Positions 3,773 to 31,190 are shown, numbered from the stretch's first letter. The stretch is 32,000 nucleotides of DNA from Delftia acidovorans NBRC 14950 (GCF_001598795.1 NZ_BCZP01000022.1:1-32000); one strand, 5' to 3'. The notes: generated by a model from the sequence alone, not told the origin. A program made the numbers and translations.

Positions 3773-6700
3773 CTAGGGCACGGCGCTCCAACGCTTGGTG
3801 TGCGGCGCCACGCCGGGCAGGACCACCGTGATGTCCGCGCTGCCGACAGCCAGCGCCTTCACGGCAAGGTCCATGCACGGCTGGCCTGCGGGCCACGCAA
3901 CGCTGGCACTGCCCACGCCAAGGACTGAAGGCTGGGAAGAGACCACGCTGGCCTGCAGATCGGCCAGCGGATAGCTGAGCATGGCCCATGAGGTATCGCC
4001 CAGGCAGATGGCATAGGACTGCTGGTCGCCCACGGTCATCTGCACATTCGCCCGATCGGGGTCATCCCACTTCCAGCGATCGAAAGACAGCCGGGGCTCG
4101 ACGACCTCAATGCGCTCGCGGCCCGGCTCGGGATAGAGATCGGGCATGGAGGGTGCCGAGACCTCCAGGTCCGTCGCGCCCAGCGCCAGTCCGAGCACCC
4201 GGGCCGTGCCGCTGTTGCCGTCGGGCGCGATCTCGACCTGTTCCTGCGCGGAGCAAATGGCCGCATCAACGCAGCGCAGCCGCGCCTGCATGGGCTGCTC
4301 GGGAAGCTCCTCGCTCCCGAGATAGGTGGGCCTGAGCACCACATCGGACGCAAACCCCCGGGCCACAGCCATGTCGCTGCAGTCGCCGCAGGGACGGTTG
4401 ACGGTGAGGCCCCGGTCCGGCAGGACACGGATGGTCTCGCTGCGTGCACCCTGGCCTCCCGGCAGGTCGGCCCCGATGCGGTAGCTGCCCGGCTGCGTGG
4501 CCTCCTCCACGAACAGCGCCGGTGTGCAGCCGCTCCAGGTCTGGATGAAGGCCTTGTCCACGACATCGCCGTCCTGCCTCAGGTCGCGGATGTGCTGGAC
4601 CACATCGGCCGGCGAGCGATCGTACAGGCCCACGTCCACGCGCATGTCCGGGGCCACGGGGCGCTGCCGGTCGTAGGGCGCGGCCTCGGGCACGGACAGG
4701 CAGGCATGGAAGCCCTGGCGCAGGGACATGTAGCGCTGCGGGGTCAGCGCAGAGCTCGCGCTGGAGATCTCGGCCGATCTGCGGGTGGACATCTCGTCCT
4801 GGACGATGAGTGCTACGGATTGCGGGCCCACCACCTCGACGGGGATGGTGGCCGTGGTCAGTTGCCGCCCCCCCGCGATCAGGCGCGTGGTGCCCGGGGC
4901 CAGGCCGATGATTTCCACGTACTCGGAGGTGCTCCACTCCGACATCTGCACAGACGAACGCACGGTCTGGCAGATCTCCGGGTTCTCGCAGCGCAAATCG
5001 ACTGACACGCCTGAATACTGGTGCAGGCTGTCCGCATCCTTGCGCCACGACACGCGCACCGCCTGCGGCGCCGTCAGGCCCTGGCCGACCACCACCTTGC
5101 CGCTGTCGGCCGTGGCCGCAAGCGACAGCACCGTGGGCATCCAGACCTCGATCTCGCGGGACTCGCCTTCCGCAAAATCGCCGTGCACGAGCACGCTGGC
5201 CCGTCCCGGGCCGACGCCCTTGACCGTGACGGGCGCGTCGTACTGGTACATCTGGCCTTCGGCCAGCTGCGTTTCGGCGGGGGCCACAGCCAGGACCGCA
5301 GGATTGGAGCTGGACAGGCGGGCCTTCAGCCCTCCTGCGGGCGGGGGCGGCAGCACCGGCGCGATGATGAAGGTCTCTTCCTCGCCCACGACGAGGATGC
5401 TGGGGGCGTAGTCGAGGCCGACGCGGACCTTGTCCGTGAACGTCAGCCAGACGGGTTCCTCGCTCAGGTAGTTGCGCGCCTTGACAAAAAGCTGCGCGCT
5501 TTCACCCACCGCTGCCGCCGTGCCCTGGATCTGGATCTCCCTGGACGTCTCCCCTGCCGCCACCTTGACGCTGGCGGGATGCACCACCCGGCCCTCGGGC
5601 GTGCTGGTCAGCTGCACCTCCACGCCTTCGGCAGGCGCGGGGTGGGACAGCTGGACCGAGGCCCGGTGGGGATGACCGATCAGCATCGCGCTGTGCGGCA
5701 CTTGAAGACCGACCCGTGGCAGGTCAGCCACCGTGATGCTGGCCACGGCCTCGCCCAGATCGGGATGCCTGGCCGTGACCCGCGTGGTTCCGAGGTTGTA
5801 AGCGGAGCCTGTGACGTTGAAATCGGCCTGCGTCCGGCCTTCCTCCAGATGCAGGCTGGAGCCGACGCTGGCGATGTGGGTGGCACCAGTCGCGAGGCTC
5901 ACGGTCCGGCCGCCCGCAGGTGCCGGCACGCCCAGGTGCAGCGTCATGGTGCCGGTCCTGTTCCTGCCCACGGTGATCTCGGCAGGCTCGATGGAGAAGG
6001 GTGCGCGCCCCACCTCGATCAGGCCACCCTCCACGAGATAGGGAATGCCCGTCAGCGCCCATTGGACGGAGGTGGTGATGACACCCGCCGGCACCAGCAC
6101 GGCATCGAGCCCATTGCCCTCGGCGCGCAGGCCGCTGCCGCGAGGCGAGGACTGCAGGTCCACGCGCAGGGCCGGCCCCTTGTGGTGGAGGATGGAAACC
6201 TGGTCCAGGCCGGGCGAGGCCCCCTCGACGACCAGGCCACTGCCGTACTCGATGCGCACATGGGCCCATTGCGTGGCCCCGCTCCGCGTCCCCGCGAGAA
6301 AGCGCCATTCGCCCCAATCGCCGGGCGCGGGCTGGGGCCGCGAAGAAGTGATGGTGATCGGCTGCTGCGCTGTGCCCATTGCGCGTACGGCGCCGTCCCG
6401 CACGGTGAAACTGGCACCCGGCTCCATCTGTATGACGAGCCCGGGCTCCAGCGTCAGCGTGGCACCGGACTCCAGCACCACATCCCCCTGCAGGAGCACG
6501 GGCGAACTGGCTGCCGGCCAGGACGCGTTGCTACTGATGGACCCGGAGATACGCATGCCCGCCTGGGCCGGCAGCATGGCGGTCATCCAAAAAAGCGACC
6601 CCACAACCATCCACGCGAGCAGACAGGCGGCCCTGCGCAGCAGGAACAAAGCCTTCCGCGGACACTGGATCTGCGCCACCTTGGCGCGCCGTCCCGGCAG

Positions 6701-6790
6701 GGAATGCCCGCCGCAGTTGCGGGAAATGGGAAAGGTAGAAACAAGGGCGCATTGCAGCAATGCGCCTCCTCCCGGCAGACTGACGCGCAT
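3773..6790 (-). CDS. Large secreted/surface protein: beta-helix-like N-terminal region followed by several Ig-like beta-sandwich repeats
   Basis: 1005-aa ORF with host-like codon bias. Hydrophobic signal-like segment LLRRAACLLAWMVVGSLFWMTAMLPAQA. N-terminal pattern GDVVLESGATLTLEPGLVIQMEPGASFTVRDGAVRAMGTAQQPITITS resembles parallel beta-helix proteins. Later segments repeat with roughly 90-100-aa periodicity. The exact start is uncertain: ATG 6790 or an internal GTG. Confidence 0.7.
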   Translation of the reverse strand: MRVSLPGGGALLQCALVSTFPISRNCGGHSLPGRRAKVAQIQCPRKALFLLRRAACLLAWMVVGSLFWMTAMLPAQAGMRISGSISSNASWPAASSPVLLQGDVVLESGATLTLEPGLVIQMEPGASFTVRDGAVRAMGTAQQPITITSSRPQPAPGDWGEWRFLAGTRSGATQWAHVRIEYGSGLVVEGASPGLDQVSILHHKGPALRVDLQSSPRGSGLRAEGNGLDAVLVPAGVITTSVQWALTGIPYLVEGGLIEVGRAPFSIEPAEITVGRNRTGTMTLHLGVPAPAGGRTVSLATGATHIASVGSSLHLEEGRTQADFNVTGSAYNLGTTRVTARHPDLGEAVASITVADLPRVGLQVPHSAMLIGHPHRASVQLSHPAPAEGVEVQLTSTPEGRVVHPASVKVAAGETSREIQIQGTAAAVGESAQLFVKARNYLSEEPVWLTFTDKVRVGLDYAPSILVVGEEETFIIAPVLPPPPAGGLKARLSSSNPAVLAVAPAETQLAEGQMYQYDAPVTVKGVGPGRASVLVHGDFAEGESREIEVWMPTVLSLAATADSGKVVVGQGLTAPQAVRVSWRKDADSLHQYSGVSVDLRCENPEICQTVRSSVQMSEWSTSEYVEIIGLAPGTTRLIAGGRQLTTATIPVEVVGPQSVALIVQDEMSTRRSAEISSASSALTPQRYMSLRQGFHACLSVPEAAPYDRQRPVAPDMRVDVGLYDRSPADVVQHIRDLRQDGDVVDKAFIQTWSGCTPALFVEEATQPGSYRIGADLPGGQGARSETIRVLPDRGLTVNRPCGDCSDMAVARGFASDVVLRPTYLGSEELPEQPMQARLRCVDAAICSAQEQVEIAPDGNSGTARVLGLALGATDLEVSAPSMPDLYPEPGRERIEVVEPRLSFDRWKWDDPDRANVQMTVGDQQSYAICLGDTSWAMLSYPLADLQASVVSSQPSVLGVGSASVAWPAGQPCMDLAVKALAVGSADITVVLPGVAPHTKRWSAVP

Positions 6791-7584: not shown

Positions 7585-8037
7585 CTACGCCAGTTCCATC
7601 TGCATGGGTACGAAGGCCACGCCGTTCTTCTCCAGCGGCGCGCTGGTGGCCCGAAAACCCAGCCTTTCGTAGGCGGGTACGGCAAACGGCGTGGAGTTGA
7701 CGGTGACGCTGCCGGCGTCCGAGTGGATGACAGACTGCAGCGCCTGCCACAGCCGCCTGGCCAGTCCCTGCCGCTGGAACGGCAGGCCAACGAACAGATG
7801 GAACAGATGGCGCCCGTCACGCAGGGCCGCCATGCCTGCCAGGGCATCGCCCTGCCTGGCAACGATGAAGAGGTAGCGGGGGTCCTGCAGGTAGGCCTTG
7901 AACGCCTCCTGCCCCAGGGCCTTCAGGAATTCCTGCGCGCCCTGGCTGCCGGAGTCCAGGGTGAAGAGGTGCGAAACGCTGGAGACCAGCGCGCTGATCT
8001 CTTCGGCGTCTTCGATGTGTGCGGGACGAATGTGCAT
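7585..8037 (-). CDS. GNAT-family N-acetyltransferase
   Basis: Start at ATG 8037 (MHIRPAHIEDAEEISALV...). Acetyl-CoA motif-A-like LFVGLPFQRQGLARRLW. About 150 aa. Confidence 0.85.
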   Translation of the reverse strand: MHIRPAHIEDAEEISALVSSVSHLFTLDSGSQGAQEFLKALGQEAFKAYLQDPRYLFIVARQGDALAGMAALRDGRHLFHLFVGLPFQRQGLARRLWQALQSVIHSDAGSVTVNSTPFAVPAYERLGFRATSAPLEKNGVAFVPMQMELA

Positions 8038-8093
8038 GGGGAAAAGGTGCAAGGGCCACGGGGCCTGCCCCCGGTCCCTCCCCCGCAAGCCTC

Positions 8094-12591: not shown

Positions 12592-13155
12592 TCACTTGGG
12601 CAGCAGCACCTTGTCGATCACGTGGATCACGCCGTTGGACTGGTAGACGTCGGGGATGGTCACCGTGGCCGTGCCGCCCTTTTCATCGGTCAGCATGATC
12701 TTGGAGCCGCTGGACTTGGCCACCAGCGTGCCGCCGCTGACGGTCTTGATGCTGGCCATTCCCTTGCCGTCCTTGATCATCTTGGACAGCGCCGCTGCAT
12801 CCCACTTGCCGGCCACCACGTGGTAGGTCAGCACAGTGGTCAGCGTGCCCTTGTTCTCGGGCTTGAGCAGGGTGTCCACCGTGCCTGCGGGCAGGGCCTC
12901 GAAGGCGGCATTGGTGGGCGCGAACACGGTGAACGGACCCGGGCCCTTGAGCGTATCGACCAGGCCCGCCGCCTTGACGGCTGCGACCAGGGTGGTGTGG
13001 TCCTTGGAGTTGACGGCGTTGTCGATGATGTCCTTGGACGGCAGCATGGGTGCGCCGCCCACCATCACATCGGCCATGGCGGCCACGGAGGCAGCCGACA
13101 TCACGATGGCCAGGCCGAACGAGGCCAGCTTGCGGGTGTTTTGAATCGAGACCAT
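12592..13155 (-). CDS. Secreted fasciclin (FAS1) domain protein
   Basis: Signal peptide KLASFGLAIVMSAASVAAMA. FAS1 motifs FTVFAPTNAAFEALP and VIHVIDKVLLP. Confidence 0.9.
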   Translation of the reverse strand: MVSIQNTRKLASFGLAIVMSAASVAAMADVMVGGAPMLPSKDIIDNAVNSKDHTTLVAAVKAAGLVDTLKGPGPFTVFAPTNAAFEALPAGTVDTLLKPENKGTLTTVLTYHVVAGKWDAAALSKMIKDGKGMASIKTVSGGTLVAKSSGSKIMLTDEKGGTATVTIPDVYQSNGVIHVIDKVLLPK

Positions 13156-13467
13156 GGAATGCTCCTAGCGGGTTGATGACAAGCCGAACGATTCCGGCTG
13201 ATCTGGATACGCAGCGCAGCGGGGTCTGGATTCAAAAAAGAAAAAGAAACGGCTGCATCCGCAAACCGTTACCTGCGCTTTCAATTGCGGCACATCCAGA
13301 CCTGCGCGGCCTGCGTACTGCCGGATAGCGGGGACGCATCCCATTCCGCTGGAGCAGGTGGCCACCTCTTCAGTGGAACGCGCTTTCGCCACACCCGTGT
13401 GCTTTCGGCCGGAGGCGCATTCTTCACGTTGACCGTTCGCGCCTGCCGCGAACCGAGAGGAACCATC

Positions 13468-14439
13468 ATGTCCGACGAATCAGTGTTGATCGGGGTTTTG
13501 CAAAAACGTGCCAAGAAGCTGGAGGACAGGCGCCAGTTCTTCCGCAAGACCAGCGGCGTGGCCGTGGGCATGGCGGGCGGGGTGATCCTGTCCGCCTGCG
13601 GCGGCGGCGGGGGCGATGCGAATGCGCAGGCCAACGGGCCCACGGATGCGGAGATCCTGAACTTCGCCCTCAACCTGGAGTATCTGGAGTCGCAGTTCTA
13701 TCACTACGCGGTGTTCGGCACCGGCCTGCCCGCCAACCTGCAGTCGGGCGTGGGCACGCAGGGCGCCATCACGGGCGGCCGTGCCGTGGCCTTCAAGGAC
13801 CCCGTGGTGGCGCAGTACGCCAAGGAGATCGCCCAGGACGAGATCGCCCACGTGGCCTTCCTGCGCGCGGCGCTGGGCTCGGCTGCGGTGGCGCAGCCGC
13901 AGATCGACATCGGCGGAACCGACCCGAACGGCGCCTTCTCGGTGGCGGCGCGAGCGGCCGGGCTGGTGGGCGCGGGCACGGCCTTCGATCCCTATGCGAG
14001 TGACGAGAACTTCCTTCTGGGGGCCTTCATCTTCGAGGACGTGGGCGTCACCGCCTACAAGGGCGCATCGCCGCTGATCACCAACAAGACCTATCTGGAG
14101 GCAGCCGCCGGCATCCTGGCCGCCGAGGCCTACCACGCAGGTCTGGTGCGCACGGTGCTGTACGCCAAGGGACTGGCCACGCCCGCGCTGCGCACGGCGG
14201 CCGGCGCCATCTCGGATGCGCGCGACAGCCTGGATGGCTCCACCGACGTGGACCAGGGCATCACGGGGGACGCCACCACGTCCAACATCGTGCCGCTGGA
14301 TGCCAACGGCATCGCTTTCAGCCGCTCGCCGGGCGACGTGCTGAACATCGTGTACCTGACCAAGGACACGGCGACCAAGGGCGGGTTCTTCCCGGCCGGC
14401 GTGAACGGCTCGCTGGTGATGAGCAGCGCCTACGCCTGA
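13468..14439 (+). CDS. Tat-exported ferritin-like-domain lipoprotein
   Basis: Start ATG 13468 with GAGAGGAA RBS. Twin-arginine motif RRQFFRK, lipobox ILSAC, and ferritin-like DAEILNFALNLEYLESQFYHY. Confidence 0.85.
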   Translation: MSDESVLIGVLQKRAKKLEDRRQFFRKTSGVAVGMAGGVILSACGGGGGDANAQANGPTDAEILNFALNLEYLESQFYHYAVFGTGLPANLQSGVGTQGAITGGRAVAFKDPVVAQYAKEIAQDEIAHVAFLRAALGSAAVAQPQIDIGGTDPNGAFSVAARAAGLVGAGTAFDPYASDENFLLGAFIFEDVGVTAYKGASPLITNKTYLEAAAGILAAEAYHAGLVRTVLYAKGLATPALRTAAGAISDARDSLDGSTDVDQGITGDATTSNIVPLDANGIAFSRSPGDVLNIVYLTKDTATKGGFFPAGVNGSLVMSSAYA

Positions 14440-14447
14440 CGCGGACT

Positions 14448-14482
14448 GCCCGCCTGCCCCGCGCCGGCCGGGGCAGGCGGGC
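14448..14482 (+). terminator. GC-rich hairpin after the ferritin-like gene (13-bp perfect stem)
   Basis: gcccgcctgcccc-gcgccggcc-ggggcaggcgggc followed only by tt, a poor U-tract. Confidence 0.4.
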
Positions 14483-14530
14483 TTCCCCGGGGCTGGCCCG
14501 AGACAAGCGTTCCCCTGCCAAGGAGTTGCC

Positions 14531-14773
14531 ATGATGTCCCTTCTGCCTTCCTCATCCGCCCCCAGCACGCCGGCTCACACTCCGGCCCGCACGCCACGGC
14601 GCCTGAAACCTGCCACCGTGGCGCGCCGCTGCGTGGGCAGCCTGATTCTGCTGGCCGGCGCGGTCATCGTGACCGGAGATCTCGTGGCGCTGTGGCGCGG
14701 CGCAGGCACTGATGCCGCACCCGCCGCCGCAGCCATGGCACCCGCCAGCGGCCTGGTGCCAACCACCCGATAG
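14531..14773 (+). CDS. Small hypothetical single-pass membrane protein upstream of mntH
   Basis: AAGGAG RBS 5 nt upstream of the ATG. One hydrophobic helix CVGSLILLAGAVIVTGDLVAL. No recognisable family. Confidence 0.4.
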   Translation: MMSLLPSSSAPSTPAHTPARTPRRLKPATVARRCVGSLILLAGAVIVTGDLVALWRGAGTDAAPAAAAMAPASGLVPTTR

Positions 14774-14818
14774 GCATCCCCCCTGCAACCGCGTGCCCCC
14801 GCCGGCGGAAAGGCCCCC

Positions 14819-16189
14819 ATGAACGACACCGTGCTTGCGGCCGAACAGGGCCGCTTCGGCGCCATCGAGCCGGACAACGGCCACGCGGGCACGCCCAGCC
14901 TGCCGCAGGTGCATCGCAGCATTGCCGTGCCGCGCGGCGACAGCCGCTCGGACAACGCGCGCCGCGTGCTGGCGTTTGCCGGGCCCGGCTACATGGTGGC
15001 CGTGGGCTACATGGACCCGGGCAACTGGGCCACCTCCATCGCGGGCGGCTCGCAGTTCGGCTACTCGCTGCTGGCGGTGATCTTTGCCTCCAACCTGATG
15101 GCCATGCTGTTCCAGGCGGCGGCCGTGCGCCTGGGCCTGGCCAGCGGGCGGGACCTGGCCCAGGCCTGCCGCGCGCAGTTTTCCCCGCGCATCAACCTGG
15201 TGCTGTGGTTCTTCTGCGAGATCGCCATCGTGGCCTGCAATCTGGCCGAGGTGCTGGGCATGGCCATCGGCCTGAACCTGCTGTTCGGCCTGCCGCTGGT
15301 GGCCGGGGTGTGCATCACGGTGGTGGATGTGATGCTGATCCTGGCGCTGCAAAGCCGGGGCTTTCGCTGCCTGGAGTCGGTGGTGATCGCCCTGGTGGCC
15401 GTGATCGGCCTGTGCTTTGCCGCCCAGCTGGTGTGGCTGCAGCCGCCCGTGGCGGCCGTGCTGCGCGGCCTGCTGCCGGGCATGGAGATCGTGGCCAATC
15501 CGCAGATGCTGTACCTGGCCGTGGGCATCGTGGGGGCCACGGTGATGCCGCACAACCTGTACCTGCATTCGTCCATCGTGCAGACACGCCGGCATGACAC
15601 CACGCCCCAGGGCACGCGGCAGGCCATCCGCTTGGCCACGCTGGACTCCACGGTGGCGCTGGGTCTGGCGCTGTTCGTGAACGCCGCCATCCTGGTGGTG
15701 GCGGCCGGCGCGTTCAACCGGCCCGGCCAGGCACCGGTGACCGAGCTGTCGGACGCCTACCACCTGCTGTCCCCGCTGCTGGGCGTGGGCATCGCCAGCG
15801 CGGTGTTCGGCGTGGCGCTGCTGGCCTCGGGGCTGAGTTCCTCGGTCACGGGCACGCTGGCCGGGCAGATCGTGATGGAGGGCTTCTTGCAGATCCGCCT
15901 GTCGCCCGCGCTGCGCGCCCTGCTGACGCGCTGCATCGCCATCGTGCCCGCCGTGGTGGCCACCGCCTGGTACGGCAGCACCGGCGCCAGCGCCCTGCTG
16001 GTGTTCAGCCAAGTGGTGTTGAGCCTGCAATTGCCGTTTGCCATCGTGCCGCTGCTGCTGTTCACCACGCGGCGCAAGACGCTGGGCGAGCTGGCCTTTG
16101 GCCCAAGGATGTCGGCGGTGCTGTGGGGCTGCGCGGCCCTGGTGGTGTCGCTGAACCTGTGGATGCTGCAGCGGCTGCTGATGGCCTGA
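14819..16189 (+). CDS. mntH: NRAMP-family divalent metal (Mn2+/Fe2+):H+ symporter
   Basis: GPGYMVAVGYMDPGNWATSIAGG (the DPGN motif), ATVMPHNLYLHSS, and about 11 transmembrane segments. Confidence 0.95.
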   Translation: MNDTVLAAEQGRFGAIEPDNGHAGTPSLPQVHRSIAVPRGDSRSDNARRVLAFAGPGYMVAVGYMDPGNWATSIAGGSQFGYSLLAVIFASNLMAMLFQAAAVRLGLASGRDLAQACRAQFSPRINLVLWFFCEIAIVACNLAEVLGMAIGLNLLFGLPLVAGVCITVVDVMLILALQSRGFRCLESVVIALVAVIGLCFAAQLVWLQPPVAAVLRGLLPGMEIVANPQMLYLAVGIVGATVMPHNLYLHSSIVQTRRHDTTPQGTRQAIRLATLDSTVALGLALFVNAAILVVAAGAFNRPGQAPVTELSDAYHLLSPLLGVGIASAVFGVALLASGLSSSVTGTLAGQIVMEGFLQIRLSPALRALLTRCIAIVPAVVATAWYGSTGASALLVFSQVVLSLQLPFAIVPLLLFTTRRKTLGELAFGPRMSAVLWGCAALVVSLNLWMLQRLLMA

Positions 16190-16274
16190 GGCGCCCTGAG
16201 GCTGTCCCGAGGTGGCCCCGGCGCCACGCGGCACCTTCATAGACGTTTTGCTTCTATCAAACGCCGCTCTTGTT

Positions 16275-16323
16275 CGTTGGTGGCTTGCCGCGAAGTTCTT
16301 AGATTGGTGCCTATAGCCACCAA
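16275..16323. promoter_or_regulatory. 10-bp inverted repeat with a third half-site upstream of the encapsulin operon (candidate operator or leader hairpin)
   Basis: gttggtggct (16275-16284) pairs with agccaccaac (16314-16323). An extra ttggtgcc sits at 16303-16310. The element lies about 30 bp upstream of the rhodanese ATG. Confidence 0.3.
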
Positions 16324-16351
16324 CCCGCGAATTCTCCGCAAGGACGACGAC

Positions 16352-16831
16352 ATGACAGCCCTCACTTTGGAAACCGCCTTGCCCCAGGCTCTGGAAGAGG
16401 CGCAGGAACACGCCCGCGCACAGGGGCTGGGCCACGCAGGCGGCGTGCGCCCGCCCGTGGCCTGGGCGCTGGTGCAGGCCGGCCAGGCCGTGCTGGTCGA
16501 TGTGCGCACGGCCGAGGAACGCAAGTTCGTCGGCCAGGTGCAGGACACCCTGCACGTGCCCTGGGCCACGGGCACGGCGCTGACGCGCAACCCGCGCTTT
16601 GCCCGCGAGCTGGAAGCGCGCCTGGCACCGCACGGCGGCAAGGAGGCCGTGGCCCTGCTGCTGTGCCGCAGCGGCAAGCGCTCGGTGCTGGCGGCCCAGG
16701 TGGCGGCCCAGGCCGGGTTCGCCCATGTGTTCAACGTGCTCGAAGGCTTCGAGGGCGAGATCGACGCGCGTCAGCAGCGCGGCAAAAACGACGGCTGGCG
16801 CTTCCACGGCCTGCCCTGGATTCAAGACTGA
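16352..16831 (+). CDS. Single-domain rhodanese sulfurtransferase (encapsulin-operon accessory)
   Basis: Start ATG 16352 (MTALTLETALPQ). LVDVRTAEERKF... and active-site loop LLCRSGKRS (C-X4-R). Confidence 0.85.
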   Translation: MTALTLETALPQALEEAQEHARAQGLGHAGGVRPPVAWALVQAGQAVLVDVRTAEERKFVGQVQDTLHVPWATGTALTRNPRFARELEARLAPHGGKEAVALLLCRSGKRSVLAAQVAAQAGFAHVFNVLEGFEGEIDARQQRGKNDGWRFHGLPWIQD

Positions 16832-16843
16832 AGGAGCACGCAG

Positions 16844-17758
16844 ATGGCCAGTTTCGACATTGCCGGACTCACCCAGAACCTGCATGCGGCGCGCCGCGAA
16901 TGGCGCGAGGCGCACGGCCGCACCCAGGAGCCCGGGGCGCGCGAGTTTCCCTCGCGCGACGCGCTTTCCACCCTCATCGACCAGCTCAAGGCAGCCCTGT
17001 TTCCCATGCGCCTGGGCCCGCACGACCTGCGCCAGGAAAGCGAGGACATCTTCGTGGCCCACCAGCTGGACTCGGCCCTGCATGCGCTGCTGGGCCAGAT
17101 ACGGTTGGAGCTGCGGCTGTCCGCGCCCCACACGGCAGCGGGCGCCGACGCCATGGCGCTGGACATCGCCCGCGCCTTTGCCGAGTCCCTGCCCCAGATC
17201 CGCCGCCTGCTCGACAGCGACGTGCTGGCCGCCTTCCAGGGCGATCCCGCCGCGCGCAGCGTGGACGAGGTGCTGCTGTGCTATCCGGGCGTGCTGGCCA
17301 TGATCCACCACCGCCTGGCCCACCAGCTGTACCTGCTGGAGCAGCCGCTGCTGGCGCGCATCGTGGCCGAGCTGTCGCATGCGCAGACGGGCATCGACAT
17401 CCACCCGGGCGCGAAGATCGGCCGGGGCTTTTTCATGGACCACGGCACGGGCGTGGTGATCGGCGAGACCGCCGTGATCGGCGAACGCGTGCGGCTGTAC
17501 CAGGCCGTCACCCTGGGCGCCAAGCGCTTTCCCACCGATGAGCACGGCCACCTGCGCAAGGGCCTGGCGCGCCACCCGGTGGTGGAGGACGACGTGGTCA
17601 TCTACGCGGGCGCCACCATCCTGGGCCGCGTCACGCTGGGGCGCGGCGCCGTCATCGGCGGCAATGTCTGGGTGACCGAGGACGTGCCGCCCGGCGCCCA
17701 CGTCACCCAGGCCCATGCGCGCGAGCACGCGCAGCAGCCCCGGGAGGTGGCCCTATGA
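16844..17758 (+). CDS. cysE: Serine O-acetyltransferase (CysE/SrpH-like)
   Basis: Left-handed beta-helix hexapeptide region GIDIHPGAKIGRGFFMDHGTGVVIGETAVIGERVRLYQAVTLG. 12-nt gap after the rhodanese gene. Confidence 0.9.
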   Translation: MASFDIAGLTQNLHAARREWREAHGRTQEPGAREFPSRDALSTLIDQLKAALFPMRLGPHDLRQESEDIFVAHQLDSALHALLGQIRLELRLSAPHTAAGADAMALDIARAFAESLPQIRRLLDSDVLAAFQGDPAARSVDEVLLCYPGVLAMIHHRLAHQLYLLEQPLLARIVAELSHAQTGIDIHPGAKIGRGFFMDHGTGVVIGETAVIGERVRLYQAVTLGAKRFPTDEHGHLRKGLARHPVVEDDVVIYAGATILGRVTLGRGAVIGGNVWVTEDVPPGAHVTQAHAREHAQQPREVAL

Positions 17759-18027
17759 GCACCCGTCTTGTCACCAGCTTCGGCATTGCCGTGCGCCAGG
17801 CGCGCGAGGCCCATGGCTGGTCGCAGGAGCGGCTGGCCGAGCACTCGGACCTGAACCGCTCCTACGTGGGAGAGATAGAGCGCGGCCGCGTCATCGCCTC
17901 GCTGCTGACCGTGGAGAAGCTGGCCGTCTCGCTGGGCGTGCAGCCCTCGGCCCTGGTCATGCGCGGCGAAACCGTGGCCCACGACCAGCTGGTGCGCGGC
18001 CTGCGGTTGGCGGCTATAGCATGTTGA
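17755..18027 (+). CDS. XRE-family helix-turn-helix transcriptional regulator
   Basis: FGIAVRQAREAHGWSQERLAEHSDLNRSYVGEIERGRVIASLLTVEKLAVSLGV is a canonical Cro/C1-type HTH. Its ATG overlaps the cysE stop (ATGA at 17755-17758). Confidence 0.8.
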   Translation: MSTRLVTSFGIAVRQAREAHGWSQERLAEHSDLNRSYVGEIERGRVIASLLTVEKLAVSLGVQPSALVMRGETVAHDQLVRGLRLAAIAC

Positions 18028-18109
18028 AGACATGTGCGCGGGCCGGGACACTGGCCCTGTTTCCCTCCTTCCCCTTCCCTTTTTCCTGAACTGATCACGG
18101 AGTCTGCAC

Positions 18110-19042
18110 ATGTCGGCAACAGTGGGCGGCACGACCGCGCTAGGCGACAACGCCGCGCGGCAACTGGCCAACGCAACCAAAACCGTTCCCCAGCTTTCGA
18201 CCATCAGCCCGCGCTGGCTGACGCACCTGCTGCAATGGTCGCCGGTGGAGGCGGGCATCTACCGCCTCAACCGCGTCAAGAACCCGGAGGCCATCAAGGT
18301 CACCTGCACGGCCAAGCAGGAAGACAACCAGCTGCCGCGCACCTATGTGGACTACGAGGAGCAGCCGCGCGAGTACTTCCTCAACGCCGTCTCCACCATC
18401 CTGGATGTGCACACGCGCATCTCCGACCTCTACAGCAGCCCGCATGACCAGATCAAGGAACAGCTGCGCCTGACCATTGAGACCATCAAGGAGAACCAGG
18501 AAAGCGAGCTGATCAACAACCCCGACTACGGCCTGCTGGCCCAGGTCACGGACGAGCAGCGCATCTTCCCGCTGACCGGCGCACCCACGCCCGACGACCT
18601 GGACGAGCTGCTGACCAAGGTCTGGAAGGAGCCCGCCTTCTTCCTGACCCATCCGCTGGCCATTGCCGCCTTCGGCCGCGAGGCCACGCGCCGCGGCACG
18701 CCGCCGCCCACGGTCAGCCTGTTCGGCTCGCAGTTCATCACCTGGCGCGGCATTCCGCTGATCCCCTCGGACAAGGTGCCCGTGGCCGATGGCAAGAGCA
18801 AGATCCTGTTGCTGCGCGTGGGCGACAAGCGCCAGGGCGTGGTCGGCCTGTACCAGCCCGGCCTGCCGGGCGAGCAAAGCCCGGGCCTGTCGGTGCGCTT
18901 CATGGGCATCAACAACCATGCCATCGCGTCCTACCTGATCTCGCTGTACTGCTCGCTGGCCGTGCTCACGCCCGACGCGCTGGCCGTGCTCGACGATGTC
19001 GAGATCGGCAAGTACCACGACTATCCCGACACCTACAAGTAA
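18110..19042 (+). CDS. Family 2A encapsulin shell protein (SrpI-type, HK97 fold predicted)
   Basis: 310 aa. The N-terminus AARQLANATKTVPQLSTISPRWLTHLLQWSPVEAGIYRLNRVK matches my recollection of Family 2 encapsulins. The size fits subtype 2A, which lacks the cNMP-binding insertion. GGAG RBS. Sits directly upstream of the cysteine desulfurase with a disordered N-terminal domain. Confidence 0.85.
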   Translation: MSATVGGTTALGDNAARQLANATKTVPQLSTISPRWLTHLLQWSPVEAGIYRLNRVKNPEAIKVTCTAKQEDNQLPRTYVDYEEQPREYFLNAVSTILDVHTRISDLYSSPHDQIKEQLRLTIETIKENQESELINNPDYGLLAQVTDEQRIFPLTGAPTPDDLDELLTKVWKEPAFFLTHPLAIAAFGREATRRGTPPPTVSLFGSQFITWRGIPLIPSDKVPVADGKSKILLLRVGDKRQGVVGLYQPGLPGEQSPGLSVRFMGINNHAIASYLISLYCSLAVLTPDALAVLDDVEIGKYHDYPDTYK

Positions 19043-19054
19043 AGAGGCCGGGCG

Positions 19055-20953
19055 TTGACCGTGTCTGCAATCACCTCCGTGGCGCCCCAGGCGCCCTTCG
19101 ACCCCGAGGCGCTGGCGCGCATGGCCAACGCCTTGTTCTCCGCCGCACCGGGATCGGCTCCTGCCCTACCGGGTCTTCCGGGTCTTCCCGGCCTGCCTGC
19201 TGGCGTCCAGGCCCCCGTGAACGTGGCGCCGCCCGGCTCGCCGCTGGCCAGCCCGGCAGGCCTGGGCCCCGGCGTGCCGGGCACGCCCATCCCGCAGGGC
19301 GTGGCGCCGGGCAGCAACCTGCTGCCGGCCTCGCCCGCGCCGCTGGCCTCGCTGGCCCACCGCGCGCCCGCGCTGCTGCCCCATGCCCAGGCCGGCAACG
19401 GCGTGCCCGACCATGTCGTGAGCGCCCTGCCCGCCTACGAGCCGCGCCTGGGATCGCAGGTGCTGGGCGTGCCCCAGCGCCAGGGCGATCCGCTGGATGC
19501 GCTGGCCGCGCTCCCGTTCACGGCACCTGCGTCACCTGCGTCACCCGCCGTGCCGCGCATCGGCGTGCCCACCGAAGGGCCCGGCATTGCGTCCACCGTG
19601 CCTTCGGCCGAGCCGCGCTTTTACTTTGTCGATCCCGTGGTGCTGCCCGCCGGCTACACCACGCCGGCCCATCCGCTGCAGCGCCAGCAGGCTGCGCACG
19701 GGGCAAGGCATGGCACGGCCGGCGTGCAGGCGCCCTTCGACGTGCATGCCGTGCGCCGGGACTTTCCCATCCTGTCCGAGCGCGTCAATGGCCGTCCGCT
19801 GGCCTGGCTGGACAACGCGGCCACCACGCACAAGCCGCGCGCGGTGATCGAGCGCATCCGCCACTTCTACGAGCACGAGAACTCCAACATCCACCGCGCG
19901 GCGCATGAACTCGCTGCCCGCGCCACCGACGCCTACGAGGGCGCGCGCGAGCGCGTGCGCCGCTTCATCAACGCGCCCGACGTGAACGAGGTCATCTTCG
20001 TGCGCGGCACCACCGAGGCCATCAACCTGGTGGCCAAGAGCTGGGGCTGGCAGCATGTGGGCGAGGGCGACGAGATCATCGTCTCCCACCTGGAGCACCA
20101 CGCCAACATCGTGCCCTGGCAGCAGCTGGCGGCCGCCAAGGGCGCGAAGATCCGCGTGATCCCGGTGGATGACTCGGGCCAGGTGCTCATCGATGAATAC
20201 CGCAGGCTGCTGAACCCGCGCACCAAGATCGTCTCCGTCACCCAGGTCTCCAACGCGCTGGGCACGGTCGTGCCCGTGCAGCAGATCGTGGAGCTGGCCC
20301 ACCAGGCGGGCGCACGGGCCCTGGTCGATGGCGCGCAGTCGGTCTCGCACATGGCCGTGGACGTGCAGGCCATCGGTGCGGACTTCTTCGTGTTCTCGGG
20401 CCACAAGGTCTTCGGCCCCACGGGCATCGGCGTGGTCTGGGGACGGCGCGAGGTGCTGGAGGACATGCCGCCCTGGCAGGGCGGCGGCAACATGATCGCC
20501 GACGTGACCTTCGAGAAAACCGTCTACCAGCCCCTGCCCAACACCTTCGAGGCCGGCACCGGCAACATTGCCGACGCCGTGGGCCTGGGCGCCGCCATCG
20601 ACTACGTGCAGGCCCTGGGCATGGAGCGCATCGCGCGCTACGAGCACGATCTGCTGCAGTACGGCACGCAGGCGCTGGCGCCCATCCCCGGCCTGCGCCT
20701 GATCGGCACGGCGGCCGACAAGGCCAGCGTGCTGTCCTTCGTGCTCAAGGGCTGGACCACGGCCGAGGTGGGCGAGGCGCTCAACGCCGAAGGCATCGCC
20801 GTGCGCACCGGCCACCACTGCGCCCAGCCCATCCTGCGGCGCTTCGGCGTGGAGACCACCGTGCGGCCCTCGCTGGCCTTCTACAACACCACCGAGGAAA
20901 TCGACCGGCTGGCGGCCGTGGTGCAGGGGCTGGCGGCGCGCAGGCGGGGTTGA
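19055..20953 (+). CDS. SufS-like (class V) cysteine desulfurase with ~227-aa disordered N-terminal cargo-loading domain
   Basis: TTG start 7 nt after an AGAGG RBS. Residues 1-227 are Pro/Ala/Gly-rich and low-complexity (PGLPGLPGLP, APASPASPAVP) with ALARMANALFS at residues 19-29. The catalytic domain has DNAATTHKP, the PLP-Lys motif FSGHKVFGPTGIG and the Cys loop RTGHHCAQP. Confidence 0.9.
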   Translation: MTVSAITSVAPQAPFDPEALARMANALFSAAPGSAPALPGLPGLPGLPAGVQAPVNVAPPGSPLASPAGLGPGVPGTPIPQGVAPGSNLLPASPAPLASLAHRAPALLPHAQAGNGVPDHVVSALPAYEPRLGSQVLGVPQRQGDPLDALAALPFTAPASPASPAVPRIGVPTEGPGIASTVPSAEPRFYFVDPVVLPAGYTTPAHPLQRQQAAHGARHGTAGVQAPFDVHAVRRDFPILSERVNGRPLAWLDNAATTHKPRAVIERIRHFYEHENSNIHRAAHELAARATDAYEGARERVRRFINAPDVNEVIFVRGTTEAINLVAKSWGWQHVGEGDEIIVSHLEHHANIVPWQQLAAAKGAKIRVIPVDDSGQVLIDEYRRLLNPRTKIVSVTQVSNALGTVVPVQQIVELAHQAGARALVDGAQSVSHMAVDVQAIGADFFVFSGHKVFGPTGIGVVWGRREVLEDMPPWQGGGNMIADVTFEKTVYQPLPNTFEAGTGNIADAVGLGAAIDYVQALGMERIARYEHDLLQYGTQALAPIPGLRLIGTAADKASVLSFVLKGWTTAEVGEALNAEGIAVRTGHHCAQPILRRFGVETTVRPSLAFYNTTEEIDRLAAVVQGLAARRRG

Positions 20954-21238
20954 GCCACGGGCTCAGCCCAGGCGTCTTGCAAAGGCGTCGCCCGTGGTGG
21001 CCGTGCCCAGGCGACCATGCCCAGGCGGCCGCCACGTCGTTGGCGCCGCTTGCGCCAGGTGTGCCGCAGGCCGGCCCCGGTGGCAATGCCGCGCCACGGC
21101 AGCGGACGGAACACGGCATTGGAGTCATGAAAAAGCATTGCCAATATCAGAATGATCCTATGGATTTTCATAAATCATAGGAATAGACTTTGGAGCACGC
21201 CCAACAAACTCTCCTGCATCGTTTCCGGTTTCATTCAT

Positions 21239-22243
21239 ATGAAAAAAATCAGATATTTTCTCATTCCGGCAACGCTTTGCTTTTCTGTAAGCTCCATTTA
21301 TGGAGGCATGTTTACACCGGCAGTATCCATCGTCCAATTACCGGAAATCATCAACGTTCCCGCAGGAAATATCATGAATGGATCAGTGCTATGGGAATCG
21401 CCCATGGTCAAATCCACTCTCGACACAATTTCCTACAGTGTGCTTTCGGGGCCATCTTCAGAAATATGGCCCCAAATCATGAACCCCACTACGCTGGACG
21501 GCGATATCTACTCCACATCTTTGCGCGGAATAGGAATCCGTTGGCGTGCCACATGGAAAGCCAGGAATTTCCCCAATGGCAAAACCATGTCCATCACCAC
21601 TACGTCCAACAATTCAGGAGCCACGGGATGGCAAAAGGATGATGTACATGAGCAAACCATATGGATGCAACTCATCAAGACAGGCGCCGTTCAATCGGGC
21701 ACTTTCAGCGTCAGCAGCTATGCAACCGCCCGGTTTGACTGCAATAGCCTTTGCAATATCTGGTCCGTGATGGCGGCCGGCAGCACCGTGGTGCGCACAG
21801 GCGCCAGTTGCCGGGTGAAGACGAGCAACATCGCCGTGAACCTGCAGCGAATCAACAGGTCACAGTTCAACGGGATAGGCGCTACCTCCGCGCCCCAGTC
21901 ATTCGATCTGGAATTGATCTGCACCGGGGGCGATGCCAATTCCACCCTGCGCCCGTTCGTCACGCTCACGGATGCCAACGATGCCGCCAACCGCTCCGAT
22001 GTGCTGACGGTGACCGGAGGGGCTGCCGGCATCGGCATCCAGATCCGCAGCAGCGACAAGGTCATCAGCTACGGCGAGGACTCCGCCAACTTCGGCAATC
22101 CCAACCAGTGGCAGGCGGGCATCATCACCCCAAACACCAGCAACCACGTGATTCCATTGACGGCGCGCTATGTCCAGACCCAGCCCTCCGTCACAACAGG
22201 CCTGGCCAACGGACGGGCCACCTTCACGCTCAATTACCAGTGA
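21239..22243 (+). CDS. Chaperone-usher-type two-domain fimbrial adhesin-like protein (orphan)
   Basis: Start ATG 21239 (MKKIRYFLIPATLCFSVSSIYG, a signal peptide). C-terminal pilin-domain hallmarks: Cys pair ASCRV...LELIC, GIGIQI, LTARYVQT, and terminal ANGRATFTLNYQ (compare the ...TFVYQ-type C-termini of type 1 fimbrial subunits). GC is much lower than the flanks, especially in the 5' half. Confidence 0.75.
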   Translation: MKKIRYFLIPATLCFSVSSIYGGMFTPAVSIVQLPEIINVPAGNIMNGSVLWESPMVKSTLDTISYSVLSGPSSEIWPQIMNPTTLDGDIYSTSLRGIGIRWRATWKARNFPNGKTMSITTTSNNSGATGWQKDDVHEQTIWMQLIKTGAVQSGTFSVSSYATARFDCNSLCNIWSVMAAGSTVVRTGASCRVKTSNIAVNLQRINRSQFNGIGATSAPQSFDLELICTGGDANSTLRPFVTLTDANDAANRSDVLTVTGGAAGIGIQIRSSDKVISYGEDSANFGNPNQWQAGIITPNTSNHVIPLTARYVQTQPSVTTGLANGRATFTLNYQ

Positions 22244-28713: not shown

Positions 28714-29556
28714 ATGAGCACTGCGCCTGCAAATACCAGTCTCCGCAGCCCTCACCCCGAATCCTGCGGTGCGCTGGCGCTTCAACCCATTGGCTCCGGC
28801 GACGAAGCCGCTCTCCTGGCCATCTTCGCCTCCACACGCGAGCAGGAGCGCGAACAATTCGGCTGGCCCGAGGAGCAATGGAATGCCTTCATTCGCCAGC
28901 AGTTCATGGCGCAGCACACCCAGTATTCGACGGCCTACGCCAACCCCAGTTTCGATCTGGTGCTGCGCGATGGCGAGATAGCGGGCCGGCTGTATGTGGA
29001 CCGCAGCCCGCAGGAAATCCGCGTGGTGGATATCGCCCTGCTTCCCAGGCACCGTCGCCAGGGCGTGGGGCGGCAGTTGCTGCAGGCTTTGACGGATGAG
29101 TCAGATGCCCTGGGCATTGACCTGGGCCTGCATGTGGAGAAGAACAACCCCATCCTCGGCCACTACCAGCGCCTGGGCTTTGTCACCGAGGCCGATCGCG
29201 GCGTGTACTGGTATATGCGCCGCGCGCCGCAGCCTGCGCGCAGGCCCTGCCTTGAGGATTTCACCGGCCTGGTCGGCACCGATTTCGCGTTGCAGCTGTA
29301 CGGTGCCGGGTCCGTGGCCCTGCGACTGGAAGAGGCCAAGGTCGGCCAGGGACTGCATACCTCGCACTGCTCGCTGCACTTCAGCGGACCCGACATAGCC
29401 CGCCCGGCCCATGACACCTATCTGCTTTCCCACGAGCGCCTGGGACGCTTTGCACTGTTCATGGGGCCCGTCATGGGCACAGAGCGGGGGCAGACCAGCT
29501 ACCAGGCACTCATCACCCGCATGAACCCATCGATCAAGGAGGAGGGCACGCTATGA
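28714..29556 (+). CDS. GNAT N-acetyltransferase fused to a ~100-aa C-terminal domain of unknown function
   Basis: GNAT motif A VVDIALLPRHRRQGVGRQLLQAL...HYQRLGF. C-terminal part LEDFTGLVGTDFALQLYGAGSVALRLEEAKV...CSLHFSGP...DTYLLSHERLGRFALFMGPV has no family I can name. Its stop overlaps the next ATG (ATGA at 29553-29556). Confidence 0.8.
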   Translation: MSTAPANTSLRSPHPESCGALALQPIGSGDEAALLAIFASTREQEREQFGWPEEQWNAFIRQQFMAQHTQYSTAYANPSFDLVLRDGEIAGRLYVDRSPQEIRVVDIALLPRHRRQGVGRQLLQALTDESDALGIDLGLHVEKNNPILGHYQRLGFVTEADRGVYWYMRRAPQPARRPCLEDFTGLVGTDFALQLYGAGSVALRLEEAKVGQGLHTSHCSLHFSGPDIARPAHDTYLLSHERLGRFALFMGPVMGTERGQTSYQALITRMNPSIKEEGTL

Positions 29557-30074
29557 GCGAGGCATTCATTGGAGAAATCCGTCTTTTCGCGGGCAACTAC
29601 GCGCCCGAGGGCTGGGCACCGTGTGACGGCCGGCTGCTGAGCATCAACGACAACTCCGCCCTGTTCACCCTGCTGGGCACGACCTACGGCGGAAATGGTG
29701 TCACCCAGTTCGCACTGCCCGACCTGCGGGGCCGACTGCCCATAGGCCAAGGCCAGACCCTGGGCGGAACCAACCGCATTCTGGGTCAGCAGATCGGCAC
29801 CGAAAACGTCACGCTGAACGTCAACCAGATACCCCAACACAGCCACGCATTCTCCGCCGCGGCTGCGGCCAGCACCGGCAAGCCGTCGGGACAGGTCCCG
29901 GCGGCGGTCACGGGGTTCAACCTGTATGCGCCGGCCCCCGCCACCCCCACCGCCAAGCTGGCCCCCGCCAGCGTGTCATTCGAGGGCGGCGGACAGTCGC
30001 ACAACAACGTCATGCCCAGCCTGGTGCTGAGCTACATCATCAGCCTCTACGGCATCTTCCCCAGCACCTCCTAA
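29553..30074 (+). CDS. Phage-tail-collar-domain protein (MdpB-like), paralog 1
   Basis: FIGEIRLFAGNYAPEGWAPCDGRLLSINDNSALFTLLGTTYGGNGVTQFALPDLRGR...QIPQHSH...GGGQSHNNVMPSLVLSYIISLYGIFP. Strong AAGGAGGA RBS. Confidence 0.9.
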   Translation: MSEAFIGEIRLFAGNYAPEGWAPCDGRLLSINDNSALFTLLGTTYGGNGVTQFALPDLRGRLPIGQGQTLGGTNRILGQQIGTENVTLNVNQIPQHSHAFSAAAAASTGKPSGQVPAAVTGFNLYAPAPATPTAKLAPASVSFEGGGQSHNNVMPSLVLSYIISLYGIFPSTS

Positions 30075-30093
30075 CGCTGGACAGGAGCATCAC

Positions 30094-30594
30094 ATGGACC
30101 CCTTCCTCGGAGAAATCCGTGCTTTCGGCTTCGGCCTGATCCCCAAAAACTGGCTGCCGTGCGACGGACGCCTAATGCCTGTCAGCACGAACCAGGCACT
30201 GTTCGCCCTGCTGAGCGTCAGATATGGCGGCAACGGCACAACGACCTTCGGCCTGCCCGATCTGCGTGGCCGTGTACCCCTGGGATTCAGCGCAAACGAC
30301 CAGCTCGGCCTGCTCAACGGCACGGAAACCGTCACGCTGTCGGTCAACCAGATCCCCCAGCACACTCATTCGGTGTCTTGCAGCAGCACGGTAGCCACTA
30401 CCAGCGATCCCACCAATGCCGTGATGGCAGAGGCCGCTGGCGGCCTGGGCGCCTATGGCGTGCCCAACGGCTCCTTCCTGGCCCCAACTGCCGTGGCCCT
30501 CGGCGGAGGCAGCCAGCCCCATCCGAACATGCAGCCCTCGCTGGTCGTGAACTGGTGCATCGCCATCAGCGGCATTTTCCCGGCGCGTAACTGA
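30094..30594 (+). CDS. Phage-tail-collar-domain protein (MdpB-like), paralog 2
   Basis: FLGEIRAFGFGLIPKNWLPCDGRLMPVSTNQALFALLSVRYGGNGTTTFGLPDLRGR...QIPQHTH...GGSQPHPNMQPSLVVNWCIAISGIFP. AGGAG RBS. Confidence 0.9.
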   Translation: MDPFLGEIRAFGFGLIPKNWLPCDGRLMPVSTNQALFALLSVRYGGNGTTTFGLPDLRGRVPLGFSANDQLGLLNGTETVTLSVNQIPQHTHSVSCSSTVATTSDPTNAVMAEAAGGLGAYGVPNGSFLAPTAVALGGGSQPHPNMQPSLVVNWCIAISGIFPARN

Positions 30595-30617
30595 AGACCT
30601 TCCAAGGAAACATCGAC

Positions 30618-31160: not shown

Positions 31161-31190
31161 TCACGAGCGCTGCACCGCAGTCCCATCGCC

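Follow-up and report, generated by a model that had tools for sequence, protein, structure and literature searches.

A Family 2A encapsulin operon with cysteine desulfurase cargo and an embedded XRE-type regulator gene in Delftia acidovorans

The subject of this study is a group of five genes of Delftia acidovorans NBRC 14950 that lies at 16352-20953 on the plus strand of a 32,000-nt stretch of DNA (NZ_BCZP01000022.1:1-32000; ~69% GC), referred to throughout as the window. The genes encode a rhodanese, a serine O-acetyltransferase (SAT), a small XRE-type regulator, the shell protein of an encapsulin and a cysteine desulfurase (Table 1). The best explanation of the locus as a whole, in which we have high confidence, is that of a Family 2A encapsulin operon that would serve the storage of sulfur and may be regulated by the XRE protein through two conserved DNA boxes. 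As an encapsulin operon it is an ordinary copy of a known kind, for which family, cargo, structure and storage function have already been published. The embedded XRE regulator with its two conserved boxes is the only feature undiscussed in the searchable literature, and it is put forward here as a regulatory hypothesis and not as a new kind of system.

Shell, cargo and accessory genes

The product of the fourth gene had been recognised in a first-pass annotation of this DNA as a Family 2 encapsulin of the SrpI type, and profile searches bore this out. Far from lacking an encapsulin match, the protein matches the Pfam family PF19307 ('Type 2A encapsulin shell protein SrpI-like') at 1.1e-102 and the NCBIfam equivalog model NF041162 (family 2A encapsulin nanocompartment shell protein) with 528.9 bits, above the cut-off of 380. 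The model for subtype 2B (NF041163) gave a lower score and aligned only over model positions 211-449, its C-terminal half, and a Pfam search found no cNMP-binding domain in the 310 residues. For these two reasons the shell is assigned to subtype 2A, in keeping with the earlier remark that its size fits a 2A protein without a cNMP-binding insertion. The shell is 81.2% identical over 303 aa, in an end-to-end alignment, to the cryo-electron microscopy structure 8T6R (HK97 fold, T=1), and in a search against solved structures it also matched 6X8M (S. elongatus SrpI), 8WOL and 9KSL. It is from the identity to 8T6R that an HK97 fold is predicted, and the AlphaFold2 model of the shell, calculated from the single sequence without an alignment, was too poor to bear on this prediction (pLDDT 32, pTM 0.20).

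The earlier description of the adjoining gene as that of a SufS-like desulfurase with a long disordered N-terminal extension holds equally. The 632-aa protein (19055-20953, plus strand; identical to WP_034397175.1), which is read from a TTG start 12 nt after the shell gene, matches NF041166 (family 2A encapsulin nanocompartment cargo protein cysteine desulfurase) with 916.9 bits (cut-off 800) over residues 10-625. Its first 225 residues are rich in Pro, Ala and Gly. The motifs of encapsulin-associated desulfurases have been defined as LARLANEFFS and AASPYYFLDG (Nichols et al., 2021; PMC8049743), and both of these loading motifs are present in the Delftia cargo as variants, LARMANALFS at residues 20-29 (19112-19141) and AEPRFYFVD at residues 185-193 (19607-19633). 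The SufS-type domain occupies residues ~228-626, with the Aminotran_5 match spanning residues 251-619, and has 8KG1 as its best solved relative (6e-189); the pyridoxal phosphate-binding Lys451 (SGHK) and the catalytic Cys589 (HHCAQP) are both present. A PGLPGLPGL repeat was also seen in the loading domain at residues 39-47 (19169-19195). The length of the cargo differs between Delftia strains, from 632 to 644 aa (loci L081-L086), which is consistent with expansion and contraction of a disordered linker.

Rhodanese and SAT had been named in the first-pass annotation as the accessory genes of the published descriptions. Pfam and NCBIfam matches identify both here, and the R-AT-Enc-CD operon type has been described (PMC10836720). 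The rhodanese carries the active-site loop CRSGKR at residue 105 and is a candidate sulfur acceptor or mobiliser, and the SAT is named 'serine O-acetyltransferase EpsC [Delftia]' in RefSeq. The five genes are closely packed on the same strand with intergenic gaps of 12, -4, 82 and 12 nt, and a table of open reading frames (ORFs) confirmed these gaps and the gene coordinates of the first-pass annotation. The GC content at third codon positions (GC3) is 0.91-0.92 in the three largest ORFs, those of SAT, shell and desulfurase, and in sequence of ~69% GC this indicates that they are real genes. All five translations are identical to RefSeq Delftia proteins and, because they are present verbatim in public databases, the start codons agree with current annotation. 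That of the rhodanese is an internal ATG of an ORF beginning at 16277 (the product is identical to WP_034397173.1), that of the XRE gene overlaps the stop codon of SAT by 4 nt (ATGA), and the shell gene is preceded by the ribosome-binding site GGAG at 18099-18102. The exact shell sequence, which occurs on several hundred contigs (452 counted), is a 'MULTISPECIES ... [Delftia]' RefSeq record named 'family 2A encapsulin nanocompartment shell protein', and the cargo carries the matching family 2A encapsulin cargo name. Since the exact Delftia proteins bear these names, the locus has already been identified in public annotation.

The distribution of the operon was scanned with one genome per species. 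More than 592 genomes contained a relative, and the best 80 loci, which are 86-96% identical and almost all from Burkholderiales, were used for comparison. All 80 show synteny of the shell-desulfurase pair with the accessory genes, and the order rhodanese-SAT-XRE-shell-desulfurase is found in 69. The 11 loci without an XRE gene come from Ottowia, Achromobacter, several metagenome-assembled genomes and Halomonas. Four loci (L052, L060, L062, L063) contain an additional gene of ~1 kb between rhodanese and SAT. Within Delftia the context of the window is matched in six complete or near-complete genomes. Nothing was counted against the identity of the operon, for which gene identity, family membership, catalytic residues, loading motifs and the conservation of gene order are all matters of observation.

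Surveys count 1,281-1,462 desulfurase operons of Family 2A, the majority of them in Proteobacteria, Burkholderia included. The statement in the first-pass annotation that no betaproteobacterial example had been characterised appears to be true of experimental work, for no such paper was found in the searchable literature, but members had already been catalogued (Burkholderia) and named in RefSeq. Literature searches for encapsulin with XRE and desulfurase, and for encapsulin with Delftia, found nothing relevant.

The XRE gene and boxes O1 and O2

The XRE protein may be a domesticated switch resembling the C proteins, which the desulfurase-encapsulin operon of most Burkholderiales acquired along with box O2 and an internal promoter, P2, and which would repress the putatively sulfur-responsive operon promoter P1 and activate or gate the expression of shell and cargo. 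We advance this tentatively, as a proposal that falls somewhat short of being probable. No dedicated regulator of a Family 2A encapsulin is discussed in the searchable literature. The four published operon types hold only rhodanese, SAT, shell and desulfurase (PMC10836720), and an HTH_3 gene is absent from the main text of the three key encapsulin papers. It appears only as an entry in a supplementary co-occurrence table, where HTH_3 is recorded in 287 of 1,273 loci (22.5%) at a median distance of 1 (Nichols et al., 2021; PMC8049743).

The best solved relatives of the XRE protein are C.AhdI (1Y7Y; 3e-10, ~45% identity), C.BclI (2B5A; 2e-7) and C.Esp1396I (3CLC; 6e-3), and its best PADLOC models are of the Control_protein type (7.8e-16). 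The alignment to C proteins covers the whole helix-turn-helix domain, including the recognition-helix segment L-[DN]-R-[ST]-Y-[VI]; unlike C proteins, the Delftia protein has a C-terminal extension of ~25 aa. C proteins bind sites made up of a trinucleotide, TATA and a second trinucleotide, and a site that overlaps the start of transcription (O_M) leads to repression, one that abuts the -35 hexamer (O_L) to activation (PMC3488213). The boxes in Delftia share this layout, with O1 over the start in the manner of O_M and O2 at the -35 hexamer in the manner of O_L. They differ in that the half-sites are GGC/GCC where those of C-protein operators are GAC/GTC, and in that there is a single box per promoter in place of the tandem pair O_L and O_R. 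Controllers of restriction-modification (R-M) systems regulate restriction and methyltransferase genes, whereas the genes near the Delftia XRE belong to a metabolic compartment. Because no R-M genes were found in the window or in the six Delftia strain contexts, the XRE protein is regarded as C-protein-like and not as an R-M controller.

The sequence GSCTATAGC occurs exactly twice in the window, at O1 and O2, where 0.14 occurrences would be expected. At O2 the motif GGCTATAGC(A/C)(T/G)GTTGA, located 75-148 nt 5' of the shell start, is present in all 69 XRE-containing loci as well as in the window and in none of the 11 loci that lack the gene. Its TTGA is invariant (70/70) and is followed after 17±1 nt by a hexamer NANA[AC]T, which reads GACACT in Comamonadaceae and Oxalobacteraceae and GATAAT or CATAAT in Burkholderiaceae. 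The Delftia copy of the motif extends over the final codons of the XRE gene and its stop codon, which is contained in the -35 hexamer TTGAAG of P2, whereas in Burkholderiaceae the motif is non-coding; the constraint on O2 thus acts on the DNA itself. Two loci with the order rhodanese-XRE-shell-desulfurase (L048, L078) lack SAT and keep both XRE and O2.

At O1, the core of which is GCC-TATA-GCC at 16309-16318, the XRE-containing loci show a palindrome around GGCTATAGCC directly 3' of the -10 hexamer. A match to TGGCTATAGCCA with at most two mismatches was found in 41 of 66 XRE-containing loci and in none of 11 without XRE, against a background of 1.2%. Both boxes are restricted to loci that have the XRE gene (Fisher p=9e-5, this being the value for the TGGCTATAGCCA match, and 1e-7). 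In two XRE-containing loci (L060, L063) O2 is present and O1 is unrecognisable.

The putative operon promoter P1 has a -35-like hexamer TTGGTG (16277-16282), a 17-nt spacer and a -10-like hexamer TAGATT (16300-16305). Alignment of the DNA 5' of the rhodanese gene shows that the box TTTTTATTCGTTTG, with a TAnAnT hexamer after it, is conserved in loci of Comamonadaceae, Oxalobacteraceae, Burkholderiaceae and Achromobacter, and in this layout TAnAnT stands 17 nt after TTGnnn. Further upstream is the dyad ATAGA-N9-TCTAT; other genera also have a dyad at this position, for example ACAAC-N5-GTTGT in Variovorax and Achromobacter, and have it irrespective of XRE. The usual position of a LysR-type recognition site is ~64 nt upstream of the start. 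As the dyad is centred at about this distance from the putative P1 start, it would fit CysB-like sulfur control, and P1 would then be a conserved weak promoter with an upstream dyad typical of activation of the LysR/CysB type. On the proposed model the XRE protein probably binds as a dimer to the two GGC-TATA-GCC boxes, so that it would repress its own synthesis from P1 through O1, which overlaps the P1 start, and would activate or gate P2, from which shell and cargo may be expressed, through O2, which abuts the -35 hexamer. XRE, O2 and P2 would make up a single cassette whose parts were acquired or lost jointly.

Several points weigh against this model of regulation. In 25 of the 66 XRE-containing loci O1 has more than two mismatches, and a promoter scanner applied to 14400-21400 found no sigma-70-like site; the matches to consensus are weak in both promoters, being 3/6 and 4/6 for P1 and 4/6 and 3/6 for P2. 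The hexamer GACACT lies in the loop of a hairpin and could for this reason be an RNA or terminator element and not a -10. Binding of the XRE protein to the boxes is itself predicted from co-occurrence and analogy only. In an alternative reading XRE is an unrelated passenger, such as an orphan antitoxin or a remnant R-M controller; some other factor would then bind the GGCTATAGC boxes, or O2 would serve as a transcription roadblock or terminator element and not as part of a promoter. The protein has sub-threshold matches to HipB-type antitoxin models as well as to C-protein models, C.Kpn2I is reported as an elongation roadblock (PMC6237814), neither promoter reaches the consensus threshold of the scanner, and the hairpin overlaps the proposed -10 of P2. 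We nevertheless consider this alternative unlikely. XRE has no adjacent gene for a toxin, a restriction endonuclease or a methyltransferase, three families of Burkholderiales keep it in the one location between SAT and shell, and the boxes co-occur strictly with it. The canonical GATAAT and CATAAT of Burkholderiaceae stand at the same 17-nt spacing without a hairpin, which favours a promoter, and the roadblock variant would still leave XRE regulating shell and cargo.

The hairpin is possibly a partial terminator of transcripts from P1, as judged from its minimum free energy (MFE) structure. Given its z-score of -1.87 and the lack of an equivalent hairpin in Burkholderiaceae, it is treated as a minor alternative. 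A terminator scan of 14400-21400 returned three sites, all within MntH and no more than expected by chance.

If the XRE protein does act as a C-protein-like switch, it would determine when the compartment is assembled, or in what stoichiometry, relative to the soluble accessory enzymes. The form of the operon with XRE and two boxes dominates among the closest relatives of the shell (69 of 80), which provides a testable handle on the regulation of desulfurase encapsulins.

Table 1. Positions of the genes, domains and proposed regulatory elements in the window.
Feature	Position	Strand	Evidence or remark
MntH	14819-16189		NF001923, 574 bits; directly upstream of operon
Dyad ATAGA-N9-TCTAT, candidate LysR-type (CysB-like) activator site	16239-16257	+	Centred ~64 nt upstream of putative P1 start
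Putative operon promoter P1	16268-16305	+	Box TCTTGTTCGTTGG at 16268-16280, -35-like and -10-like hexamers
Box O1, near-perfect 20-bp palindrome TTGGTGCCTATAGCCACCAA	16304-16323	+	Overlaps P1 -10 hexamer and putative start
Rhodanese, single-domain, 159 aa	16352-16831	+	PF00581, 1.4e-8; first gene in 77/80 loci
SAT, EpsC/CysE type, 304 aa	16844-17758	+	NF041874 EpsC, 168 bits (cut-off 150); TIGR01172, 2e-51
XRE/HTH_3 regulator, 90 aa	17755-18027	+	HTH_3, 1.4e-13; between SAT and shell in 69/80 loci
Box O2 GGCTATAGC	18012-18020	+	GGC-TATA-GCA at 18012-18021
Putative internal promoter P2	18024-18052	+	-35 TTGAAG 18024-18029, 17-nt spacer, -10-like GACACT 18047-18052
7-bp hairpin GGGCCGG-GACA-CTGGCCC and pyrimidine-rich tract	18040-18057	+	MFE structure, z=-1.87 (not significant alone)
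Family 2A encapsulin shell, 310 aa, HK97 fold predicted by homology	18110-19042	+	NF041162, PF19307, identity to 8T6R
Cargo-loading domain, residues 1-225	19055-19729	+	49% Ala+Pro+Gly, two loading motifs
SufS-type class II cysteine desulfurase catalytic domain	19730-20953	+	PF00266, 9e-148; TIGR01979, 556 bits

Proposed function and neighbouring genes

By homology to the shells of A. baumannii and Synechococcus, 60 shell subunits would be expected to self-assemble into a T=1 shell of ~24 nm with the HK97 fold, and desulfurase dimers would be captured inside it by way of the short motifs in the disordered N-terminal domain of ~225 residues. L-cysteine may enter by the five-fold pores and be converted by the desulfurase to alanine and persulfide sulfur, and this sulfur would build up as elemental sulfur in a protected state. 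The O-acetylserine made by SAT would go into cysteine synthesis, and a candidate acceptor or remobiliser of sulfur is the rhodanese. For Delftia we infer by homology that the shell assembles and is loaded with cargo, that sulfur is stored and that a limited sulfur supply induces the operon; for the accumulation of elemental sulfur and for induction there is experimental precedent in A. baumannii and S. elongatus. The view, taken in the first-pass annotation, that the physiological role of the compartment is still open is outdated; because sulfur storage and an induction of ~10-fold have been demonstrated in the system with the 81%-identical shell (Benisch et al., 2024; PMC10836720), the question has been answered at least in part. 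Delftia grows easily in culture and would be a convenient host in which to study sulfur storage and remobilisation in vivo.

It has been proposed by Andreas and Giessen that sulfur is channelled to a co-regulated rhodanese, and a compartment could assemble whose main role is to insulate a reactive enzyme that generates persulfide, with redox or persulfide signalling or such channelling as its purpose, perhaps with a link to metal homeostasis. MntH lies directly upstream of the operon, as had been noted earlier, together with a ferritin-like protein that has a Tat signal (13468-14439), and the two are conserved among Delftia strains. This role is nonetheless improbable, since elemental sulfur collects in crystalline form in the 81%-identical system of A. 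baumannii, both in vitro and in cells (PMC10836720), MntH and the ferritin-like gene are both missing from the surroundings of the operon in all 80 other loci, and the location of P1 between MntH and rhodanese argues for separate transcription. Of the neighbourhood that had been described as rich in sulfur and metal functions, the upstream MntH and a protein with four rhodanese domains are indeed present, but MntH and the ferritin-like gene are found near the operon only in Delftia. These last two genes were for this reason rejected as parts of the system, and the metal neighbourhood is Delftia-specific and probably incidental.

The ferritin-like protein (PF13668; plus strand) has the twin-arginine-type signal RRQFFRKTSG, and between its gene and MntH is a small ORF of 72-80 aa (14531-14773, plus strand) that is called by NCBI in Delftia strains. 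An Rfam scan of 13000-21500 (E<=1) gave only a chance match to a miRNA; no Mn riboswitch, other riboswitch or known RNA family was found 5' of MntH, nor was any found in the operon.

The possibility that the HK97-fold protein is a remnant prophage capsid placed by coincidence beside an ordinary desulfurase of SUF Fe-S assembly can be dismissed: the fold is common to encapsulins and phage capsids, one public source calls a member of the cluster 'Phage capsid-like protein' and the window has three genes with phage tail collar domains at 29.5-31.2 kb, but there are no portal, protease, terminase or other phage genes beside the shell gene, the shell passes the Family 2A equivalog model and not a capsid model, the shell-desulfurase pair and accessory genes keep their synteny in all 80 loci compared, the loading motifs are found in the desulfurase, which also scores above the cut-off of the cargo-specific model, and sufBCDE genes are not adjacent.

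The four-rhodanese protein had been described, together with a cupin, at 331-2544. Its four rhodanese domains were found, but the gene spans 331-2709 on the minus strand and the cupin is weakly supported, the N-terminal ~250 aa giving only a sub-threshold match of cupin type (AraC_binding, E=0.021). The product has 792 aa (736 aa in NCBI calls for other strains). On the same strand is a coding-like ORF of 1,005 aa (3773-6790; GC3 0.84), which has no match in Pfam, NCBIfam or PADLOC and whose predicted product suggests a secreted protein with a signal or transmembrane segment and repeated beta-rich modules. This ORF and a GNAT gene (7585-8088, minus strand) are absent from two Delftia strains (L082, L086), in which the TctC gene directly adjoins the tautomerase gene; because of this absence a segment of ~4.3 kb (3773 to ~8090) is taken to be a strain-variable insertion.

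Directly 3' of the desulfurase gene, in a pocket of 54% GC, is an orphan gene for a fimbrial MrkD-like adhesin (21152-22243, plus strand). Its position is conserved in six Delftia genomes, no usher or chaperone gene is nearby, and its low GC content suggests a horizontal origin. The end of the window (28714-32000, plus strand) is occupied by a cluster of lower GC content (58-66%) with a GNAT+DUF6916 protein, three consecutive phage-tail-collar-domain proteins of ~170 aa (29553-30074, 30094-30594 and 30618-31160) and, after these, a TIG-domain protein that runs off the end of the window. In some Delftia strains (L082, L085) the cluster is replaced by other genes.

Comparison with known encapsulins

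The closest described system is that of Acinetobacter baumannii 118362 (J517_0525-0528; 8T6R; PMC10836720), the shell of which is also 310 aa long and is 81% identical to that of Delftia. The two operons are alike in the order rhodanese, SAT, shell and desulfurase, and the two cargo proteins in their disordered loading domain of ~225 aa. The A. baumannii operon has four genes with no regulator between SAT and shell, whereas in Delftia this interval holds the 90-aa XRE, box O2 and the putative promoter P2, and box O1 is additionally present at the operon promoter. The hosts also differ, Delftia being a betaproteobacterium and A. baumannii a gammaproteobacterium. In A. baumannii the shell has been shown to be a T=1 particle of 24 nm with a five-fold pore of 6 Å, with desulfurase dimers located beneath the pentamers and tethered by discontiguous motifs of their disordered N-terminal domain (PMC10836720). 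The desulfurase is more active when encapsulated, the crystalline sulfur that accumulates in the compartment is shielded from glutathione, and all four genes are induced ~10-fold by sulfur limitation (PMC10836720).

The SrpI shell of Synechococcus elongatus PCC 7942 (6X8M/6X8T; PMC8049743) is likewise of Family 2A and aligns with residues 9-305 of the Delftia shell at 482 bits. Its desulfurase is loaded via a disordered N-terminal domain, which has been shown to be both necessary and sufficient for loading (PMC8049743), and both of the motifs are found in variant form in Delftia. The cyanobacterial locus has a different gene neighbourhood and its shell a lower identity to that of Delftia than has 8T6R. 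A positive charge has been reported for the five-fold pore of SrpI, in contrast to the uncharged pore of the closer A. baumannii homologue.

The mycobacterial shells known as 'major membrane protein I' (8WOL, 8WON, 9KSL) belong to the same family, with full-length alignments of 465-488 bits, and come from actinobacterial hosts. The shells of Family 2B (9BHU, 9BIX, 9BJE; annotated as Crp/Fnr or nucleotide-binding proteins) share a homologous HK97 core over residues 61-300 (278-297 bits), but are ~470 aa long and contain a cNMP-binding domain, which the Delftia shell does not have. In many 2B operons the cargo is a terpene cyclase or polyprenyl transferase and not a desulfurase, although 199 2B desulfurase operons have also been catalogued (Andreas and Giessen).

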